From a virus (taxonomy: Duplodnaviria; Heunggongvirae; Uroviricota; Caudoviricetes), in the IMG/VR virus record IMGVR_UViG_2663763326_000006: a stretch of 36,849 bases of DNA, one strand, 5' to 3'. Shown piece after piece: positions 20,179 through 36,849 of the stretch. The notes under the pieces were generated by a model. That model was not told where the DNA came from, made no database searches, and saw only the letters and a list, made by a program, of their open reading frames with translations. A program made the translations under genes and the position numbers. Numbering within the stretch: the stretch's first letter is position 1; the number at the start of each line of letters is the position of its first letter.

Positions 20179-21132
20179 ATGTCTGATTACTTAAAAGGTA
20201 AACGTGTCGTTGATCCGGTACTGACCAGTATCGCCCGTGGCTATAAAAATGCCGCATTCATCGGCGAACGTATTTTCCCCGTCGTGCTGACGGACAAGGA
20301 AGGCGTGCGTGTACCGACCTTCGGGAAAACCGCCTTTGTGGAATATGACACCGAGCGTGCCGTCGGGGCGGACAGCAATGTTCTGGTCCGTGAAAAAACA
20401 GGCACGCTGGACCTGGTGCTGGGTGAACACGATCTGGCTGCGCCGGTGGACTATCGCGAGCAGGCGGAGTCCATGTTTAACGAAGAGAGCAAGGCCATCC
20501 GTCGCGCCACGAATGGCGTGAACCTGCGCCGTGAACTTATCGCTGCCCGTCTGGCTCAGGATGAAAAGGTCTACCGTACCGGGCACGTCAAAAAACTGAC
20601 AGCCAGTGATCGCTGGGCCGGTGGTAAGGGGGACCCCATCGGGGTGATTGAAGCCGGTATGGAAGCGGTCCGTACGGCCACGGGGCTGCGTCCTAACCTG
20701 ATGACCATGGGGGCCGGCGTGATGGCGCTGCTGAAGTTCCACCCGGCGATTCAGGCCGCCATCGGAGCCAACGAACGCAAGCGCATCACCACAGAAATCC
20801 TGCAGGACCTCTTTCAGATCGAAGAGATCGTCATCGGTGCCCCAGTCTCCCTGCCGTCCATGAAAGCGGCAATGGATAAGAACAGCGTGCCGGCGGATAT
20901 CTGGGGAGACAATCTGATGCTGCACTATGTCGGCAAACCGCAGCCGGGGGCGGACAGCGCGGACGAGAACGAGCCGTCCTTCGGCTACACCCTGCGTCGT
21001 AAGGGGATGCCTGTTGCCGACAAATACGACGGAGCCGGTGGCAAGGTGAAGTACTGCCGTTATACCGATATCTACAAAGTCGCCGTGGTTGGTGGCGATG
21101 CCGGGTATCTCATTACCGGTATCAGTAAATAA
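20179..21132 (+). CDS. major head subunit (Mu T-like, 317 aa)
   Basis: Size, strong RBS, position after protease/scaffold. Confidence 0.8.
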   Translation: MSDYLKGKRVVDPVLTSIARGYKNAAFIGERIFPVVLTDKEGVRVPTFGKTAFVEYDTERAVGADSNVLVREKTGTLDLVLGEHDLAAPVDYREQAESMFNEESKAIRRATNGVNLRRELIAARLAQDEKVYRTGHVKKLTASDRWAGGKGDPIGVIEAGMEAVRTATGLRPNLMTMGAGVMALLKFHPAIQAAIGANERKRITTEILQDLFQIEEIVIGAPVSLPSMKAAMDKNSVPADIWGDNLMLHYVGKPQPGADSADENEPSFGYTLRRKGMPVADKYDGAGGKVKYCRYTDIYKVAVVGGDAGYLITGISK

Positions 21133-25454: not shown

Positions 25455-28405
25455 ATGTCGGGACAGTTTTCAGTCGGCGTTGTTATCGGCGGGATGATTG
25501 GCAGCACATTCCGTTCTGCAATGAGCGGTACCCGCCGTGCGCTTGATTCCCTGAGCGATACCTCACGCCGCCTGCAGGAACGTCAGAACGCTTTAACCCG
25601 TGCAACAGAACGTTATGGTCAACTGGGTTCTTCCCGGATGCAGCATCTCAACAGCGAGCTGCTGCGGGTAAGCCGCACCATGGAGCAAATTGAGCGCCAG
25701 CAGCGCCGTCTGTCAGCGGCATCCGCTACCAGTGATGCGCTGAAAGCTAACCGCATGGCGCTGTATGGTCAGGGGATTGAAGCGTATGGCATGGCACAGA
25801 CTGTTTATCATACGGTTTCCCCTGCCGTTCAGCAGTCCATGTCTTTTCAGGACAAAATGATTGATATGTCGATCACCGCAAAATATGACAATAAAACGCG
25901 GGATGCACTTGCCGGACAGATAAAAGGCTGGGCGCTTAAATACAATCAGTATCAGGATGAGCTGCAGGAGGCGATGGGTTCACTCATCAGCGACAATATT
26001 GATAATGTGTCAGATATCGGTTTTCTGATGCCGGATATTGCCCGCGCGGCAACGGCAACACGCACGTCTGCTCAGGACTGGGCAAAAGTGGCCGCAGTCT
26101 GGCAAAACTCCCTGAAAGGCGCGGCCAGAGATTTTGGTGCCGTTCAGAATATTATGGCTTATGCCGGTGACCAGGGGTCATTTGAAATCCCGGATCAGGT
26201 CAAGTGGATGCAGTCCCTGGCCCCAATGATGGCGGGTATTGCCAGTGGAAAAGAGGCTGTTGCTGAAATCGGGGCCAGTCTCCAGATAGCAAAAATCGGT
26301 GCAGGTTCCACCGACGAAGCAGCCAATAATTTTAAAAACTTTCTTACCAAAATTTTTGCCCGCGATACTCAGAAACAGTTTGCTGATCTGGGTATTGATT
26401 TGCAGGGATCTATTGCGAGTTATAAAGCTGCGGGGATCTCTCCGATTGAAGGGATGTTGAGTGTTATAGAACGTTACCTCAATGCCAAAAGCCCCGAAGC
26501 GCTGGCCGGCTTCAAATCAGCCATGAAAATAAAGAATGATACGGCAAGAGATGAGGCACTTCAGGCTCTGGCGAAAAACTTTGGTCTGGGCGATATGTTC
26601 GCGGATATGCAGGTCATGGCATTTATCCGCCCGATGCTGGCCAACATGGACAGATATCGAGAGATCCGTGCCGGTGCTCTCAGGGCTGCGGATAACGATT
26701 TGCTTGCCAGTGCTTATGATCAGCGGCTGAAATCTCCCCTTGAAGCCACTAAAACACTTATGGTCAGCAGTCGCGATCTGGCAATTACGCTGGGCGATCA
26801 ATTAGCTCCATCTTTTATTTCTCTGACTCAGGACTTGCTCCCACTCATTCAGGGGACAAAACACTGGGTGGCGACTCACCCGCAATTTGTCAGTGGGGCT
26901 TTTAAGCTCATCAGTGCGCTCCTTGCGATTAAGATAGCGACTGTTGGTCTCAAACTGGGGCTGAATCTCCTTATTTCCCCCTTTGTGAACGTCTGGAAAA
27001 CTGCTGTTTTACTCCGGACCAACTGGCATCGACTGACTACCGCACTCGGAGAAGGTGGCAAATTACGCTGGCTTGTCACTGGATTCAGCCGACTGACCAG
27101 CGGAGGACTGAAACTCAGCAAAGTTCTGGCGGGCAGCCTCGTTCGCGGTTTTATGAGCGCTGCACGTGCCGTTCTCTGGATTGGGCGAGCGCTGATGATG
27201 AATCCCATCGGTCTCGTTATCACCGCTGTCGCGGCAGCAGCTTACCTTATCTACCGCAACTGGGGGCAGTCAGTGGCTGGTTTAAACAGCGCTGGGCTGA
27301 CATTCAGGAAGCCTTTAACGGCGGTATCGCGGGAACTGGTAAGCTGCTGATTAACTGGTCGCCGGCAGGCCTGCTCTATAAAGCCTTTGCGGCTGCGCTG
27401 AAATATTTCGGCGTTACTCTGCCGGCAAAGTTCACCGACTTCGGTGGCCATCTTATCGACGGTTTGATTAACGGTATCAAAAACAAATGGGGGTCGCTCA
27501 AATCCAGTGTAACCGGAATGGGTGACAGCATCAGTAGCTGGTTTAAACAATGCTGGGCTGACATTCAGGAAGCCTTTAACGGCGGTATCGCGGGAACTGG
27601 TAAGCTGCTGATTAACTGGTCGCCGGCAGGTCTGCTCTATAAAGCCTTTGCAGCTGCGCTGAAATATCTTGGTGTTGATCTGCCGGCAAAGTTTACCGAC
27701 TTCGGTGGCCATCTTGTCGATGGTCTGATTAACGGTATCAAAAACAAATGGGAGTCGCTCAAATCCAGTGTAACCGGAATGGGCGACAGCATCAGTGGCT
27801 GGTTCAGCGAAAAGCTGGGCATTCATTCGCCGAGCCGCGTGTTTATGGGCTTTGGTGACAATATCGCGCAGGGGGCCGCCATTGGCCTGCAGCGGACCAC
27901 TCCGCTTGCAGCTCTGGCCGGGCAGCGAATGGCCAGTGAACTGCTCCCCAGAATGCCCGTGAGCATTCAGGGGCCAGAAATACGGGATAACACTTCAGGT
28001 GTTCGCTTCAGTATGCCGTTGCCCGATATCAATGGGTTTATGTCGTCTGCTAAAAATGCGATCGGAGCCGTAATCAATAGTTTGTCTTCCATGCCCGCTA
28101 TTCCGCTCTCCACCCGGGCATCGATTTTACCAGGGCAACGTCTGGCAAATGAGATGACACCGGATGTTCCCCGTATCCCCTCGCCTGAAATCCTGGCTGC
28201 CGGATATTCAGGCCGTGGTGCAGCTGCAACCGGCGGTGGAACGTCTGGTGGTATCCAGGTCAGCTTTAATCCTCAGTTTTTCCTCAATGGCAGGGAAACC
28301 ACAGCGCCTGCAGGACTGACTGGTGCCCTGAATATGAGTCTGCATGAGCTGGAAAAAATGCTGGAGCGTCTGCTGGCTCAGAAACAACGTAAGGAGTACC
28401 GCTGA
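25455..28405 (+). pseudogene. tail tape-measure gene split by a frame break (25455-27350 frame 0; continues in frame 2 to 28405)
   Basis: Frame 0 ends in a junk tail at 27350; frame 2 continues as a credible product from about 27267; break coincides with GGGGG at 27262-27266. Confidence 0.7.
27276..27797 (+). repeat. tandem direct duplication, 2 x 261 bp (87 codons), inside the tape-measure gene
   Basis: Two near-identical units (GCTGGTTTAAACA ... GACAGCATCAGT) differing at a handful of positions. Confidence 0.85.
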
Positions 28406-29289: not shown

Positions 29290-29501
29290 TGTTTCTTGAA
29301 CATGTTACCCGTGACGGAGAGCGCTGGGATTCGCTGGCATGGCAGTACTACGGTGACCCGCTGGGCTATCCCCGGATTATTGCCGCCAATCCGCACGTGG
29401 CCATCACGCCGGTGCTGCCCTCCGGGCTGTTGTTACTGATCCCGGTGATTGAGGCTGAAGAAGCCCGTACAGAAGAGGATATTGCCCCATGGCTGAGATA
29501 A
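29286..29501 (+). CDS. tail protein X-like (71 aa)
   Basis: Pattern WDSLAWQYYGDPLGYPRIIAANPHVA resembles P2 gpX; precedes gpD-like gene. Confidence 0.6.
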   Translation: MMFLEHVTRDGERWDSLAWQYYGDPLGYPRIIAANPHVAITPVLPSGLLLLIPVIEAEEARTEEDIAPWLR

Positions 29502-30622
29502 ACAGCACTGCGCAAGTCACATCAGCGTTAACCGGCGTCAGCGATGTGCTGACACCGGTGTTCACTCTGTGGTATCTGCAGAAAAACATCACCTCTGATA
29601 TCGCGCCTTATGTCACCCGTGTGACCTGGAGCGATAACATCAAAAATGAGTCCGATACCATTGAGGTGGAGCTGGACGACACCGATGGCCGCTGGCTGGA
29701 TAAATGGTATCCGGGCAAGGGTGACACGCTGACGCTGAAAATGGGCTATCAGGGCGAGAAGCTGCTGTCCTGCGGTACGTTCTCTATAGACGAGATCGAA
29801 GTGAGTTCGCCCGCTTCCGTTGTTTCTATCCGTGGGGTGGCCACCTCGGTTAACAGTGCCCTGCGGACTAAAACCAGTCGTGGTTTTGAGAACACCACGC
29901 TGGCAGCTGTTGCGGGGCGGATTGCCAGAAAGCACCGGCTGAAACTGGTGGGCAGCATTGAGTCCATCAGAATCGACCGGGTGACCCAGTATGCTGAAAC
30001 CGACGTGGGTTTTCTGCGCCGGCTGGCCAGCGAGTATGGTTATGCAGTGAAAGTGGTCAGTGACCAGCTGATTTTTTCTCATCTGGCCACACTGCGCAGT
30101 CAGGAGCCGGTCAGGCAGTTAAAACCGCAGGATGTGGCCCGCTTTTCCCTGCGTGACACCATCAACCGGGTCTATAAATCTGCAAAGGTAAAACACCAGA
30201 AAAGCAGCAGTAAAAAACTGATCGTCTACGAAGCTGATGGTGGTACCCGTGAAAGCGACAAAAAGCTCAAAGGTGGTAAGGTTACCAGCGCTGACTCACT
30301 TAAAGTTAACAGCCGCGTCAGCGACCCGGACAGTGCCCGGATTAAAGCGGATTCAGCACTGGCCAGACATAACGAATACCAGCAGAACGGCTCCCTGACG
30401 CTGACGGGAACACCTCAACTGACAGCAGGCAACAAAATTGAACTGGTGAGTTTTGGGCAGTTATCCGGGCCATGGCTCATAACCACTGCCCGCCATGCGT
30501 TTGACCGTAACAGCGGCTACACCACAGAGCTGGAAGTGGCACGGGGCCAGTCACAAGAGGGAAAAAACAAAAAACTCAGAAACTCACGGTTTATCACCCG
30601 GATGGCAGTACATCGACGGTGA
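29489..30622 (+). CDS. tail protein D (P2 gpD / Mu P-like, 377 aa)
   Basis: Size and synteny between X-like and V-like genes. Confidence 0.75.
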   Translation: MAEINSTAQVTSALTGVSDVLTPVFTLWYLQKNITSDIAPYVTRVTWSDNIKNESDTIEVELDDTDGRWLDKWYPGKGDTLTLKMGYQGEKLLSCGTFSIDEIEVSSPASVVSIRGVATSVNSALRTKTSRGFENTTLAAVAGRIARKHRLKLVGSIESIRIDRVTQYAETDVGFLRRLASEYGYAVKVVSDQLIFSHLATLRSQEPVRQLKPQDVARFSLRDTINRVYKSAKVKHQKSSSKKLIVYEADGGTRESDKKLKGGKVTSADSLKVNSRVSDPDSARIKADSALARHNEYQQNGSLTLTGTPQLTAGNKIELVSFGQLSGPWLITTARHAFDRNSGYTTELEVARGQSQEGKNKKLRNSRFITRMAVHRR

Positions 30623-31288: not shown

Positions 31289-31635
31289 ATGAAAACAACC
31301 TCAGTATTCTGGCAACCAGCCCTGCAGGCTCCCGGCGAAATTGTCCGGGGGCTGGATGATATCCGGCAGGCGATTCAAATTATCCTGCGGACTCCCCGCG
31401 GCAGCGACCCGCATCGCCCGGAGTTCGGCAGCAATCTGCATCTTTATATCGACTGGCCTGTAGACCGGGCCATTCCGCATGTGGTGCGCGAATCCGTCGA
31501 TGCCATCCGGCGCTGGGAGCCCGCTGCCAGCTTATGTCAGTTAAACCCGCCGTCGACGGCGAACATCTTACGCTCCGGGTGAGCTGGAAAGGCTCAGACG
31601 GACAGACCCGGACTCAGGAGCTGCTATGGCGCTGA
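31289..31635 (+). pseudogene. baseplate protein W (GPW/gp25 family) with apparent single-base frame break
   Basis: Frame of ATG 31289 reads through RRWEP then junk; -1 frame continues RCQLMSVKPAVDGEHLTLRVSWKGSDGQTRTQELLWR to a stop overlapping J; break at CCC 31520-31522. Confidence 0.65.
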
Positions 31636-32729
31636 CAGAACCCGATTTTATTGAACGCGATGCCGACAAAATCACGGCAGAAATGATTGCGAAGTATGAA
31701 GCGGATACCGGCAAAACGCTGTACCCGGCACAGGCAGAACGTCTGCTGATTGATCTGTGGGCCTATCGCGAAATGCTGGTCAGGGTTGCGGTACAGGAGG
31801 CAGCAAAGCAGAATCTGGTCGCCTTTGCCCGTGAGCCGATGATTGATTACCTCGGTGAACTGGTCGGTGTATACCGTCTTGCCGCGCAGCCTGCCACCAC
31901 CACGCTCCAGTTCTCCGTAGATGAGGCACTGGCCATTGATGTGCTGATCCCGGCAGGCACCCGCGTCAGCGCTTCCGACAGCGTTATTTTTGCCACCGAT
32001 ACAGATGTGGTACTGAAGGCCGGATTGCTGCTGGTCAATGTCACGGCCACCTGTACCGAACCCGGTACCGCTGGTAACGGCTGGCAACCTGCGCAGGTCA
32101 GTCAGTTACTCGATGAGATTGATAACGTTAACCTGCTGGTGAGCAATCTGATGGCCAGTTCCGGCGGTTCAGAACAGGAAGACGATGACAGGCTCCGGGA
32201 GCGTATCAGGCTGGCCCCGGAGTCATTCACCAATGCCGGAAGCCGTGGCGCATACCGCTTTCATGCCATGCAGGCCCATCCCAACATTGTCGATGTTGCT
32301 GTGCTTTCCCCGGTTCCCGGGACCGTAGATCTGTATCCGCTGCTCAGTACCGGTCTGCCGGACGGCGGTGTTCTCACGCTGGTAGAGAGTTTCTGCTCTG
32401 ATGAGAAAGTCAGGCCACTCACTGATACAGTGCGGGCTAAAACACCAGTGAAGGTGGATTACACCATTGAAGCCAGGATTACGATCTATCGTGATCAGGA
32501 TGCCAGGTCTGTAAAAGATGCCGCTAACAGCGCCATACAGAACTGGGTGGCATCACGTGCCGCCACGCTGGGGCGCGATATTGTCCCCAGCCAGATTATC
32601 AGTGCATTGTCCGTTTCCGGGGTGTACCAGGTTGAACTGGTGACACCGGCACTGCGGGTGGTGGCAGAAAACGAATGGGCAAACTGTACGGCAATCACTC
32701 TTAACATGACTGGAGTGTCTGATGACTGA
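31626..32729 (+). CDS. baseplate protein J (367 aa)
   Basis: Size and synteny V-W-J-I-H. Confidence 0.8.
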   Translation: MALTEPDFIERDADKITAEMIAKYEADTGKTLYPAQAERLLIDLWAYREMLVRVAVQEAAKQNLVAFAREPMIDYLGELVGVYRLAAQPATTTLQFSVDEALAIDVLIPAGTRVSASDSVIFATDTDVVLKAGLLLVNVTATCTEPGTAGNGWQPAQVSQLLDEIDNVNLLVSNLMASSGGSEQEDDDRLRERIRLAPESFTNAGSRGAYRFHAMQAHPNIVDVAVLSPVPGTVDLYPLLSTGLPDGGVLTLVESFCSDEKVRPLTDTVRAKTPVKVDYTIEARITIYRDQDARSVKDAANSAIQNWVASRAATLGRDIVPSQIISALSVSGVYQVELVTPALRVVAENEWANCTAITLNMTGVSDD

Positions 32730-33300
32730 GCCATTACAACTCCCGCCACCGCTTGAGGGTGATATCAGTCTCAGGACGCTGGGAAGACTGGCAGGACGGC
32801 TGGATAACATCGACCTGAGCGTACTGATGGTCTTTCTCGTCGATATCGTCGACAGTTCCGCGCTGCCATGGCTGGGCGAGCAGTTCTCACTGTCTGGCGA
32901 TGGCTGGGAGCTGGCGGAATCGGACGATGTTCGCCGCATGCTTATAAAAGCAGCCATCGAACTGCACCGGTATAAAGGGACGCCGTGGTCAATCCGGGAA
33001 GTTATCCGCCGTTTTGGCTTTGGTGAAGTGGATCTGATTGAAGGCACAGGTCGTCTCAGTTACGACGGCAATCGCAGCTATAACGGACTGTTTGTTCATG
33101 GAGATGCAGCCGCCTGGGCAGTTTATCGCGTTATTCTGAAACAGCCCATTACTAACGATCAGGCCGCGATGCTGCGTCAGACGCTGGCTGCATTTGCACC
33201 GGCCCGCTGCCATCTGGCCAGCCTGGAGTATCAGTCTGTGGCCATTCGCTATAACAATACCGCCATCCATGATGGCAGTTATAACCACGGGAGCAGTTGA
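32722..33300 (+). CDS. tail protein I (192 aa)
   Basis: Synteny between J and tail fibre; overlapping starts. Confidence 0.65.
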   Translation: MTEPLQLPPPLEGDISLRTLGRLAGRLDNIDLSVLMVFLVDIVDSSALPWLGEQFSLSGDGWELAESDDVRRMLIKAAIELHRYKGTPWSIREVIRRFGFGEVDLIEGTGRLSYDGNRSYNGLFVHGDAAAWAVYRVILKQPITNDQAAMLRQTLAAFAPARCHLASLEYQSVAIRYNNTAIHDGSYNHGSS

Positions 33301-34550
33301 TTATGGGAAACCTGAATGAAACAGAAAAGTGGGAAGAAAATATCTATCAACTGGAGACATCAGATCCGGTTCTGGGTGGTGCAGACGGGATATCAAATCG
33401 AGCCCCCCGGCAACTGGCAAACAGGACGAAATGGCTGAAGAAGAAAACGGAGGAAGCCGCACAGTCACTGGCTGAACACGTACGTTCCCGTAACCACCCG
33501 GACGCGACACTGACAGCTAAGGGGTTCACCCAACTGAGCAGTGCCACCAACAGCACCTCTGAAACGCTGGCCGCCACACCAAAAGCGGTCAAGGCTGCAT
33601 ACGACCTGGCAGCCGGCAAGGCGCCTGCCAGCCACACTCACCCGTGGAGTCAGATAACGGGAGTGCCTGCGGCTTCACTGACGGCAAAAGGCACCGTACA
33701 ACTGAGCAGCGCCACGGACAGTCAATCAGAAACTGAGGCTGCCACGCCGAAGGCGGTCAAGGCTGCATACGACCTTGCAGCCGGCAAGGCGCCCGTCAGC
33801 CACACTCACCCGTGGAGTCAGATAACGGGAGTGCCTGCTGCCTCGCTGACGGCAAAAGGCACCGTACAATTGAGCAGTGCCATCAACAGCACGTCTGAAA
33901 TACTGGCCGCCACACCGAAAGCGGTCAAGGCTGCATACGATCTGGCAAACGGAAAACAACCGGCAGATGCCACGCTCACTGCTCTGGCAGGACTTGCCAC
34001 TGCAGCAGATCGGTTGCCTTATTTTACCGGAGCAGACCGCGCAGAGCTGGCAACCCTTACAGCTATTGGTCGCGCTATTATCGCTAAGGGCAGTATAAAA
34101 GATGTCCTCAATTACCTTGGTTTGGGGGAAGGCTCGGCGCTGCCCGTTGGTGTACCTGTTCCGTGGCCCACTGCCACACCGCCAGCAGGCTGGTTAAAGT
34201 GCGACGGGCGCGCCTTTACAAAAGAACAATATCCTGTTCTGGCCAGAGTCTACCCGACCCTCCGTCTTCCCGATTTACGCGGTGAGTTTATCCGTGGATG
34301 GGACGACGGGCGAAAAGTGGATACAGGGCGCGATCTGCTTTCACGGCAGGATGGTACAAGTTTTTCTCATTACGCAGGTAATTTTGACATTGGGTCTGGT
34401 CATTCAATCAATAACTATGACCAAATCGTTGACAACCAACCTGGATTCTCCCGTTTTTCATTTGCAGGTCCTTCGCGAGGCGATGGGGTTAATTATGTGA
34501 CCATTCGTCCCCGTAACATTGCGTTTAATTACATCGTAAGGGCGGCATAG
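33297..34550 (+). CDS. tail fibre protein with fibre repeats and C-terminal tail-collar-like domain (417 aa)
   Basis: Three tandem 56-aa repeats; C-terminal VPWPTATPPAGWLKCDGRAFTKEQYPVLARVY...LPDLRGEFIRGWDDG resembles the tail-collar domain. Confidence 0.8.
   Translation: MIMGNLNETEKWEENIYQLETSDPVLGGADGISNRAPRQLANRTKWLKKKTEEAAQSLAEHVRSRNHPDATLTAKGFTQLSSATNSTSETLAATPKAVKAAYDLAAGKAPASHTHPWSQITGVPAASLTAKGTVQLSSATDSQSETEAATPKAVKAAYDLAAGKAPVSHTHPWSQITGVPAASLTAKGTVQLSSAINSTSEILAATPKAVKAAYDLANGKQPADATLTALAGLATAADRLPYFTGADRAELATLTAIGRAIIAKGSIKDVLNYLGLGEGSALPVGVPVPWPTATPPAGWLKCDGRAFTKEQYPVLARVYPTLRLPDLRGEFIRGWDDGRKVDTGRDLLSRQDGTSFSHYAGNFDIGSGHSINNYDQIVDNQPGFSRFSFAGPSRGDGVNYVTIRPRNIAFNYIVRAA
33510..33950 (+). 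repeat. about 2.6 tandem copies of a 168-bp (56-codon) tail-fibre repeat
   Basis: Repeat units start at 33510, 33678 and 33846; encode LTAKGTVQLSSA...AATPKAVKAAYDLA. Confidence 0.85.
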
Positions 34551-34554
34551 AAAC

Positions 34555-34699
34555 GTTGGTTTAGGAGAAGGCTCGGCGCTACCCGTTGGTGTGCCTGTTC
34601 CGTGGCCCACCGCCACACCGCCAGCAGGCTGGTTAAAGTGCGACGGGCGCGCCTTTACAAAAGAACAATATCCTGTTCTGGCCAGAGTCTACCCGACCC
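34555..34699 (+). other. second tail-collar cassette fragment, direct repeat of 34115-34262, truncated by IS26
   Basis: About 145 bp roughly 95 percent identical to the start of the collar-domain region, ending at the IS26 boundary. Confidence 0.6.
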
Positions 34700-35519
34700 G
34701 GCACTGTTGCAAAGTTAGCGATGAGGCAGCCTTTTGTCTTATTCAAAGGCCTTACATTTCAAAAACTCTGCTTACCAGGCGCATTTCGCCCAGGGGATCA
34801 CCATAATAAAATGCTGAGGCCTGGCCTTTGCGTAGTGCACGCATCACCTCAATACCTTTGATGGTGGCGTAAGCCGTCTTCATGGATTTAAATCCCAGCG
34901 TGGCGCCGATTATCCGTTTCAGTTTGCCATGATCGCATTCAATCACGTTGTTCCGGTACTTAATCTGTCGGTGTTCAACGTCAGACGGGCACCGGCCTTC
35001 GCGTTTGAGCAGAGCAAGCGCGCGACCATAGGCGGGCGCTTTATCCGTGTTGATGAATCGCGGGATCTGCCACTTCTTCACGTTGTTGAGGATTTTACCC
35101 AGAAACCGGTATGCAGCTTTGCTGTTACGACGGGAGGAGAGATAAAAATCGACAGTGCGGCCCCGGCTGTCGACGGCCCGGTACAGATACGCCCAGCGGC
35201 CATTGACCTTCACGTAGGTTTCATCCATGTGCCACGGGCAAAGATCGGAAGGGTTACGCCAGTACCAGCGCAGCCGTTTTTCCATTTCAGGCGCATAACG
35301 CTGAACCCAGCGGTAAATCGTGGAGTGATCGACATTCACTCCGCGTTCAGCCAGCATCTCCTGCAGCTCACGGTAACTGATGCCGTATTTGCAGTACCAG
35401 CGTACGGCCCACAGAATGATGTCACGCTGAAAATGCCGGCCTTTGAATGGGTTCATGTGCAGCTCCATCAGCAAAAGGGGATGATAAGTTTATCACCACC
35501 GACTATTTGCAACAGTGCC
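34700..35519 (-). mobile_element. IS26 (820 bp, IS6 family), complete
   Basis: 14-bp terminal inverted repeats GGCACTGTTGCAAA at 34700-34713 and 35506-35519; flanking 8-mers CCCGACCC and GCCGCCGC differ. Confidence 0.95.
34752..35456 (-). CDS. tnpA: IS26 transposase Tnp26 (234 aa)
   Basis: Protein begins MNPFKGRHFQRDIILWAVRWYCKYGISYRELQEM, recognised as IS26 Tnp26. Confidence 0.95.
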   Translation of the reverse strand: MNPFKGRHFQRDIILWAVRWYCKYGISYRELQEMLAERGVNVDHSTIYRWVQRYAPEMEKRLRWYWRNPSDLCPWHMDETYVKVNGRWAYLYRAVDSRGRTVDFYLSSRRNSKAAYRFLGKILNNVKKWQIPRFINTDKAPAYGRALALLKREGRCPSDVEHRQIKYRNNVIECDHGKLKRIIGATLGFKSMKTAYATIKGIEVMRALRKGQASAFYYGDPLGEMRLVSRVFEM

Positions 35520-35633
35520 GGCCGCCGCCGGCATCGGCCTGGCGAACAGGAAACCCTGCACCGTGTCGCAACCCGCCTGCCGCAACCACGCAAGGCAGTC
35601 GGGTGTTTCCACACCCTCGGCTACCACCTCCAT
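35520..35633 (-). pseudogene. tnpM: Tn21-type urf2/tnpM remnant (EAL-domain C-terminal fragment), cut by IS26
   Basis: Minus strand encodes [37 protein letters not shown]; bounded by IRi on one side and IS26 on the other. Confidence 0.65.
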
Positions 35634-35658
35634 TGTCGTTTTCAGAAGACGGCTGCAC
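35634..35658. repeat. IRi, 25-bp terminal inverted repeat at the intI1 end of a class 1 integron
   Basis: Sequence TGTCGTTTTCAGAAGACGGCTGCAC. Confidence 0.85.
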
Positions 35659-35835
35659 TGAACGTCAGAAGCCGACTGCACTATAGCAGCGGAGGGGTTG
35701 GATCCATCAGGCAACGACGGGCTGCTGCCGGCCATCAGCGGACGCAGGGAGGACTTTCCGCAACCGGCCGTTCGATGCGGCACCGATGGCCTTCGCGCAG
35801 GGGTAGTGAATCCGCCAGGATTGACTTGCGCTGCC

Positions 35836-36849
35836 CTACCTCTCACTAGTGAGGGGCGGCAGCGCATCAAGCGGTGAGCGCACTCCGGCACCGCCAACTT
35901 TCAGCACATGCGTGTAAATCATCGTCGTAGAGACGTCGGAATGGCCGAGCAGATCCTGCACGGTTCGAATGTCGTAACCGCTGCGGAGCAAGGCCGTCGC
36001 GAACGAGTGGCGGAGGGTGTGCGGTGTGGCGGGCTTCGTGATGCCTGCTTGTTCTACGGCACGTTTGAAGGCGCGCTGAAAGGTCTGGTCATACATGTGA
36101 TGGCGACGCACGACACCGCTCCGTGGATCGGTCGAATGCGTGTGCTGCGCAAAAACCCAGAACCACGGCCAGGAATGCCCGGCGCGCGGATACTTCCGCT
36201 CAAGGGCGTCGGGAAGCGCAACGCCGCTGCGGCCCTCGGCCTGGTCCTTCAGCCACCATGCCCGTGCACGCGACAGCTGCTCGCGCAGGCTGGGTGCCAA
36301 GCTCTCGGGTAACATCAAGGCCCGATCCTTGGAGCCCTTGCCCTCCCGCACGATGATCGTGCCGTGATCGAAATCCAGATCCTTGACCCGCAGTTGCAAA
36401 CCCTCACTGATCCGCATGCCCGTTCCATACAGAAGCTGGGCGAACAAACGATGCTCGCCTTCCAGAAAACCGAGGATGCGAACCACTTCATCCGGGGTCA
36501 GCACCACCGGCAAGCGCCGCGACGGCCGAGGTCTTCCGATCTCCTGAAGCCAGGGCAGATCCGTGCACAGCACCTTGCCGTAGAAGAACAGCAAGGCCGC
36601 CAATGCCTGACGATGCGTGGAGACCGAAACCTTGCGCTCGTTCGCCAGCCAGGACAGAAATGCCTCGACTTCGCTGCTGCCCAAGGTTGCCGGGTGACGC
36701 ACACCGTGGAAACGGATGAAGGCACGAACCCAGTGGACATAAGCCTGTTCGGTTCGTAAACTGTAATGCAAGTAGCGTATGCGCTCACGCAACTGGTCCA
36801 GAACCTTGACCGAACGCAGCGGTGGTAACGGCGCAGTGGCGGTTTTCAT
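35836..36849 (-). CDS. intI1: class 1 integron integrase IntI1 (337 aa, complete; start codon at window end)
   Basis: Protein [40 protein letters not shown] ... [11 protein letters not shown] recognised as IntI1; R32 and H39 present. Confidence 0.97.
36734..36762 (+). promoter_or_regulatory. integron cassette promoter Pc, weak PcW variant (-35 TGGACA, 17-bp spacer, -10 TAAACT)
   Basis: Hexamers at 36734-36739 and 36757-36762 on the strand opposite intI1; no TGN directly upstream of the -10. Confidence 0.8.

Follow-up and report, generated by a model that had tools for sequence, protein, structure and literature searches.

An IS26 copy in a silent tail-fibre cassette of a BcepMu-like Escherichia coli prophage is probably the left boundary of a plasmid-derived multiresistance module

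The stretch of DNA analysed here (36,849 nt; IMG/VR virus record IMGVR_UViG_2663763326_000006; hereafter, the window) runs from a BcepMu-like prophage through one copy of IS26 into a class 1 integron. We consider this IS26 to be probably the left boundary copy of a multiresistance module of an IncF-type plasmid, incorporated at the 8-mer CCCGACCC of the phage DNA, with the prophage split by the module and not truncated. A preliminary description of the same sequence had concluded that IS26 truncates the right end of the prophage. We did not retain this conclusion: unlike flanks are expected at a boundary copy, the recorded protein WP_252146644.1 fits the far junction, and the contig from which the window derives follows the plasmid module for 10.1 kb. 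The accompanying statement that IS26 joins a resistance region to the prophage, and is not a simple insertion, agrees with our results, since a Tn21/class 1 integron flank and prophage DNA lie on the two sides of the element.

A sequence search of the window found one copy of IS26, which is complete, as had been described, and occupies positions 34700-35519 (820 bp; minus strand). The element is bounded by the 14-bp inverted repeat GGCACTGTTGCAAA on the left (34700-34713) and by the exact reverse complement of this repeat on the right (35506-35519). The transposase gene tnp26 (34752-35456, minus strand; annotated as WP_001067855.1 in matching records) is an intact ORF of 234 codons, whose product, Tnp26, has the wild-type residue G184 and matches the Pfam profile DDE_Tnp_IS240 with E=2.4e-48. 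The length of about 820 bp, the perfect 14-bp inverted repeats and the lone 234-aa DDE transposase are all those of IS26. Moreover, the element together with the whole right flank was 100% identical to annotated IS26-intI1 regions of E. coli plasmids; a match of 820 bp at 100% identity cannot be of chance origin. In E. coli genomes, the queries containing IS26 matched a median of 6-7 places per genome.

The 8-bp direct repeat of a simple insertion is absent. Precisely, the 8-mer on the left is CCCGACCC (34692-34699), which we consider the presumed target site and which in intact prophages is followed by TCCGTCTTCC, and the 8-mer on the right is GGCCGCCG (35520-35527); re-examination of the insertion boundaries still gave no identical 8-bp direct repeats around the element. 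The preliminary description had reported two different flanking 8-mers, which is correct, but its right one, GCCGCCGC, is one base off. Two unequal 8-mers are what chance would give, and they are meaningful only because IS26 makes 8-bp duplications; they do not bear on the identity of the element and tell no more than that a simple solo insertion does not account for this copy. A second occurrence of CCCGACCC, at 34253, belongs to the native cassette repeat and is unrelated to IS26.

On the left of IS26, positions 1-34249 of the window were 99.96-99.99% identical to Escherichia phage PhiKM, bar a sequencing gap in the PhiKM record (27368-27553). PhiKM, a Bcepmuvirus, belongs to the Mu-like transposable phages and has a contractile-tail module as well as genes for transposase, Mor, GemA and Gam. 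We assigned the prophage to the BcepMu-like group (Bcepmuvirus) on its near-identity to PhiKM, its genes of Mu type and its Mu/P2-type contractile tail module. Many complete E. coli genomes match the region 31600-34699 at 100% identity, with at least 80% coverage in 373 of them. The intact prophages of these 373 genomes are identical (100%) to the window up to 34699, where they go on, through CCCGACCC|TCCGTCTT, into a second tail-fibre cassette; beyond 34699 the order is cassette 2, tail-fibre assembly gene, inverted cassette 3 and serine invertase gene. By comparison with an intact relative, about 2.18 kb of prophage is missing from the window. The assembly gene and the right prophage end had been reported as absent from the window, and both lie 0.37-2.2 kb past the breakpoint in intact relatives.

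The prophage of the intact relative NZ_AP022032.1 measures about 37 kb; its neighbours are ycaL and aroA, and TTCTTC is present as a short duplication. The prophage ends were placed by comparison with K-12; when terminal inverted repeats were searched for, none was found above the score cut-off used. In this genome the insertion is exactly at the ycaL start codon, with TTCTTC at both ends (L006 4400-4440 and L002 14270-14290, where L006 and L002 are the loci extracted around the left and right ends), and for this reason RefSeq gives ycaL a new start within phage DNA. Position 1 of the window is about 163 bp inward from the left phage end. The PhiKM record (PQ738613.1; locus L001) is a permuted, partial assembly with its break at 20233, within the cassette repeat. 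Its stretch 20234-20739 covers about 506 bp to the left of the mor stop codon, against about 163 bp of prophage there, and probably reaches host ycaL DNA, judging from the coordinates alone; the CDS in this stretch is annotated as 'Fe2+ ABC transporter permease'.

Compared with the source contig version and the intact relative, the window has single-base deletions in G/C homopolymers at 27261, 30542, 31284 and 31519, and no substitutions. These deletions split the tape-measure gene (25455-27350 and 27464-28405) and shorten the gpD-like (29489-30622) and gpW-like (31289-31582) ORFs. All four are most likely sequencing errors in the assembly version of the window and not true pseudogenes.

The left side of IS26 had been described as phage tail-fibre sequence. 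It is indeed tail-fibre sequence with a Collar domain, but the interrupted part is a silent second cassette, and the expressed gene, which had been overlooked, is intact. This gene (33297-34550, plus strand) is an ORF of 417 codons composed of a constant part and the variable cassette 1, with three Phage_fiber_2 domains and one Collar domain in Pfam and with 100% identity to the 373 E. coli genomes. Two Gin/Cin-like 26-bp crossover sites were recognised on the plus strand: site A (34105-34130), within the gene, which has the pattern GGTTTNGGRGAA plus flank and begins a 229-nt repeat common to the cassettes, and site B (34544-34569), a pattern match in direct orientation before cassette 2. The start of silent cassette 2 (34591-34699, plus strand) amounts to 36 codons before IS26 interrupts it, and its reading frame runs on into IS26 as a chimeric ORF of 71 codons (34591-34806). 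The direct tail-fibre repeat at 34553-34699 was considered as a product of IS26 and rejected, as it is native to all intact relatives.

In an intact relative, the switch consists of the fibre gene with cassette 1, the direct cassette 2 with the only assembly gene, the inverted cassette 3 and the invertase gene. There are three 26-bp Gin/Cin-like crossover sites, one heading each of three repeats of 229-244 nt, and two of them are direct and one inverted (window 34105-34699; L002 11506-14200). The inverted site C (L002 13548-13573) and the invertase gene (L002 13628-14200) were seen in intact relatives only. The invertase of the intact relative is a serine invertase of 190 aa with Resolvase and HTH_7 domains. 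The parts of a putative Gin/Cin/Min-type inversion system are complete in intact relatives, and the window holds sites A and B and little over one cassette. In homology searches, the cluster representative of the assembly protein was 96% identical, and the exact cassette 3 was not among the cluster representatives.

Some further features of this region were observed. All three cassettes end in the common motif RPR(N/S)IA(F/L)NYIVRA(A/V). The fibre gene contains three tandem 168-nt repeats at 33508-34011 (L002 10909-11412), the second and third with 83% and 65% identity to the first, which correspond to the three Phage_fiber_2 matches. RefSeq represents the fibre gene of the intact relative as several partial pseudogene fragments, against one ORF of 417 codons in the window.

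The Mu G segment, the P1 C segment and Min of p15B are multiple-inversion tail-fibre switches. The prophage switch resembles them in its serine invertase, 26-bp crossover sites, alternative C-terminal cassettes and an assembly gene located within the switch. It differs from them in having three cassettes, two of them direct, and one assembly gene, and, in the window, in being broken by IS26 and the resistance module. For cassette 2 to be expressed, two inversions, one after the other, would be required, as in multi-inversion systems such as Min of p15B.

On the right side of IS26, attributed to Tn21 tnpM from the beginning, there are indeed 114 bp of the tnpM/urf2M frame (35520-35633, minus strand), a remnant of the C-terminal part of the EAL-domain gene urf2M that covers the last 35 positions of the EAL profile (202-236 of 236) and that RefSeq labels as partial EAL domain protein in matching records. 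The remnant ends with TCCAT, presumably the In2 5-bp repeat, beside the 25-bp IRi (35634-35658, minus strand), the inverted repeat that bounds a class 1 integron on its intI1 side, present here as an exact copy of the IRi sequence TGTCGTTTTCAGAAGACGGCTGCAC. The integrase gene intI1 (35836-36849, minus strand; 337 aa, identified by ORF and profile match) follows, its start codon coinciding with the window end. For the tnpM/IRi/intI1 arrangement we used the layout of Tn21 (PMC5052281), and the flank has the intI1, the 25-bp IRi and the adjoining tnpM (urf2M) sequence of a Tn21-type class 1 integron context. A minus-strand ORF of 134 codons (35493-35897) runs from within intI1 via IRi and the tnpM remnant and stops inside the IS26 inverted repeat; it is peculiar to the IS26-tnpM junction and could be a protein-level marker for the module in databases.

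This right flank is of plasmid origin. A 60-mer placed over the IS26-tnpM junction was found in 18 of 5,426 complete E. coli genomes, in every case (18/18) on plasmids of 128-188 kb from human isolates. In the two plasmid records that we examined, a module of 12,191 bp has this junction at its left end; two direct IS26 copies bound the module, and its order is IS26-ΔtnpM-intI1-dfrA17-aadA5-qacEΔ1-sul1-chrA-padR-IS6100-mphR-mrx-mph(A)-IS26; examples of such IncF plasmid modules are those of NZ_CP196244.1 and of the ST131 plasmid NZ_OY019089.1. Strain SCAID WND1-2021 has an intact prophage on its chromosome (NZ_CP082831.1) and an identical IS26-ΔtnpM junction on a 186-kb plasmid (NZ_CP082832.1), and is thus a plausible candidate for the state before insertion.

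The chimeric 71-aa ORF was on record once, in LORP02000008.1 of assembly GCA_001471815.2, a contig of 327,113 bp in which dfrA17-aadA5 come after intI1. We compared this contig with the plasmid module from the start of IS26 onwards: over 10,107 bp there were 0 substitutions and 16 one-base indels. The compared stretch ends at 314,889 inside mrx, about 2 kb before the point at which the second IS26 is expected, and the contig extends 12.2 kb more. The second direct copy of IS26 is present in the plasmid versions of the module. The contig therefore resembles the IncF plasmid modules in a base-identical IS26-tnpM junction, in gene order, in IS26 orientation and in the lack of substitutions over the 10.1 kb compared, and differs from them in that prophage DNA adjoins the left IS26 on its outer side and in that the contig is most likely chromosomal. 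In the corresponding locus of the source contig (L005 10110-20216), the stretches of qacEΔ1, chrA, IS6100 and mphR have no gene call bearing a product; these genes and the IS are probably intact in the real strain.

The reading that we prefer, and the simplest one, starts from the way in which IS26 moves. IS26 produces 8-bp duplications and cointegrates in which the donor segment lies between two direct IS copies, with the duplication outside the pair (PMC7986276, PMC4196232); the boundary copy of an IS26-bounded module hence normally has unlike flanks, and the 8-bp duplication is to be found beyond the far copy (PMC7986276). Unlike flanks are expected at a module-edge copy because IS26 moves only by cointegrate formation. 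A module of about 12.2 kb (IS26-ΔtnpM-IRi-intI1...mph(A)-IS26), originating from an IncF-type plasmid, would have reached the chromosome when IS26 formed a cointegrate there by the copy-in route. It would have come either as a translocatable unit or within a plasmid cointegrate, the latter being resolved or trimmed afterwards, and its target would have been CCCGACCC in the silent second tail-fibre cassette of the ~37-kb BcepMu-like prophage. Each IS26 of the product would keep one old flank and gain one new flank, and therefore the copy in the window would have no duplication of its own. We infer that a second IS26 would lie in direct orientation about 11.4 kb downstream, with CCCGACCC-TCCGTCTTCCCG as its outer flank. 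Beyond it, about 12 kb to the right of 34700, a second CCCGACCC would be followed by the remainder of cassette 2, the assembly gene, cassette 3, the invertase gene and the phage end; the expected sequence would be CCCGACCC-TCCGTCTTCCCGATTTACG, then the genes for the 204-aa assembly protein and the 190-aa invertase, then the phage end ...GCGCGGCGCA(TCA) and aroA. The sequence is compatible with copy-in and with targeted conservative entry alike.

We predicted the ORFs of this far junction from the IS26 end and the remainder of cassette 2, both with and without the duplicated 8-mer. With the duplication, the predicted ORF has 128 codons, beginning with a GTG in the IS26 inverted repeat and continuing through CCCGACCC into the cassette 2 remainder (MPPTLRLPDL...), and its product is exactly WP_252146644.1, recorded in NCBI nr / RefSeq as 'phage tail protein [Escherichia coli]'. 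The predicted ORFs without the duplication were not found among about 15 billion proteins. At least one E. coli genome in RefSeq therefore contains the complementary junction, and its strain is not necessarily the source strain. A different strain, such as one in which a solo IS26 occupies this site, could be the origin of the protein, and the product of an inversion is compatible with it as well. At the DNA level, the left junction between tail fibre and IS26 was not found in the 5,426 complete E. coli genomes, PLSDB or IMG/VR. The far junction was not found in the complete E. coli genomes, either with a chimeric 308-nt query or with an orientation-neutral 60-mer, nor by exact scans of IMG/VR, GTDB representatives and JGI metagenomes. 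Since neither junction occurs in the collections searched, no independent genome confirms the structure.

The same compatibility has to be weighed for rearrangements that would scatter the prophage. An inversion caused by intramolecular transposition of IS26 in trans, or homologous recombination between IS26 copies, through which for instance a whole plasmid integrates or part of the chromosome is inverted, would leave the right 2.2 kb of the prophage beside a distant IS26. Such events would also give unlike flanks, many IS26 copies are common in E. coli genomes, and an inversion likewise produces an IS26-CCCGACCC-cassette junction, hence the agreement with WP_252146644.1. However, they need a prior chromosomal copy of the module, whereas in complete genomes the IS26-tnpM junction occurs only on plasmids, and the contig is colinear with the compact plasmid module over 10.1 kb. 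We regard this explanation as rather unlikely.

True truncation, which is the reading of the preliminary description, appears to us a little harder still to sustain. In this case, an IS26 already beside the resistance region would have transposed into the cassette by an intramolecular replicative event in cis, with an adjacent deletion as the outcome, or recombination between direct IS26 copies would have removed the right 2.2 kb together with the DNA beyond. The unlike flanks and the absence of the right part of the prophage from the window are both consistent with it, and the loss of flanking repeats through intramolecular events is known (PMC7986276). Nevertheless, a deletion would not yield the complementary junction ORF with its duplicated 8-mer that is on record in RefSeq; furthermore, on the right side the module has kept its standard end intact and the contig follows the module, which the arrival of a module fits better than the erosion of a phage.

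An assembly artefact, i.e. two contigs falsely joined via the repeated IS26, is very improbable: although IS26 is a multicopy repeat and homopolymer indel errors are present in both window and source contig, errors that are only indels indicate long reads, which easily span 820 bp and argue against a short-read misjoin, the junction lies inside a 327-kb contig and is identical in two sequence versions (the window and L005), and the exactly complementary junction product is on record.

The preferred arrangement, a module inserted into the silent cassette, can be compared with two known situations. Like the IS26 pseudo-compound transposons and translocatable units (Harmer, Moran and Hall 2014, PMC4196232; Varani et al. 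2021, PMC7986276), it has a boundary IS26 with unlike flanks and a passenger resistance segment; unlike those, its second IS26 and outer duplication are predicted. As in the chromosomal integration mediated by IS26 or ISEcp1 in ST131 (PMC11047377), IS26-bounded plasmid resistance genes were moved to the chromosome of a human E. coli; blaCTX-M-15 regions are the subject of that work, which names no prophage as a target, whereas here a dfrA17-aadA5/mph(A) module lies in a tail-fibre cassette.

For the prophage, the preferred reading has several consequences. More probably the prophage is interrupted and not cut off. Cassette 2 would be destroyed. About 12 kb of IS26/integron DNA would stand between the fibre gene on one side and the assembly gene, cassette 3, the invertase gene and the right phage end on the other, and the whole element would measure about 49 kb instead of 37 kb. 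In a Mu-like phage that packages by the headful mechanism, the right end of such an oversized element is probably left unpackaged. The prophage is thus likely defective. The preliminary description had called it probably defective, a reasonable inference that we would base on other grounds, namely the parting of the chaperone gene from the fibre gene and the oversized element.

The position of the module inside a Mu-like prophage and a Gin-type invertible segment could also give a phage-borne spread of integron cassettes, which we consider quite doubtful. If true, on induction the integron and mph(A) could be replicated by phage transposition within a 'Mud-like' element of about 49 kb, the 12-kb block could be flipped by the invertase, and headful packaging starting at the left end could take up a part of it (IS26-intI1-dfrA17...).

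All the components are already known, i.e. IS26, the Tn21/In2-type context, the dfrA17-aadA5/mph(A) module, chromosomal capture by IS26 (PMC11047377) and invertible switches; only the target is specific to the strain, and no new mechanism is added. For the scanning of genomes, the case indicates that a lone IS26 at the edge of a window, with unlike flanks, should be taken for one end of an IS26-bounded structure and not for the proof of a deletion. The transfer of a plasmid resistance module to the chromosome by IS26 is a very common process, and this instance is a specific and probably undescribed one, in which resistance to trimethoprim, streptomycin, sulfonamide and macrolide would be fixed in the chromosome of one E. 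coli strain and a Mu-like prophage would probably be disabled too.
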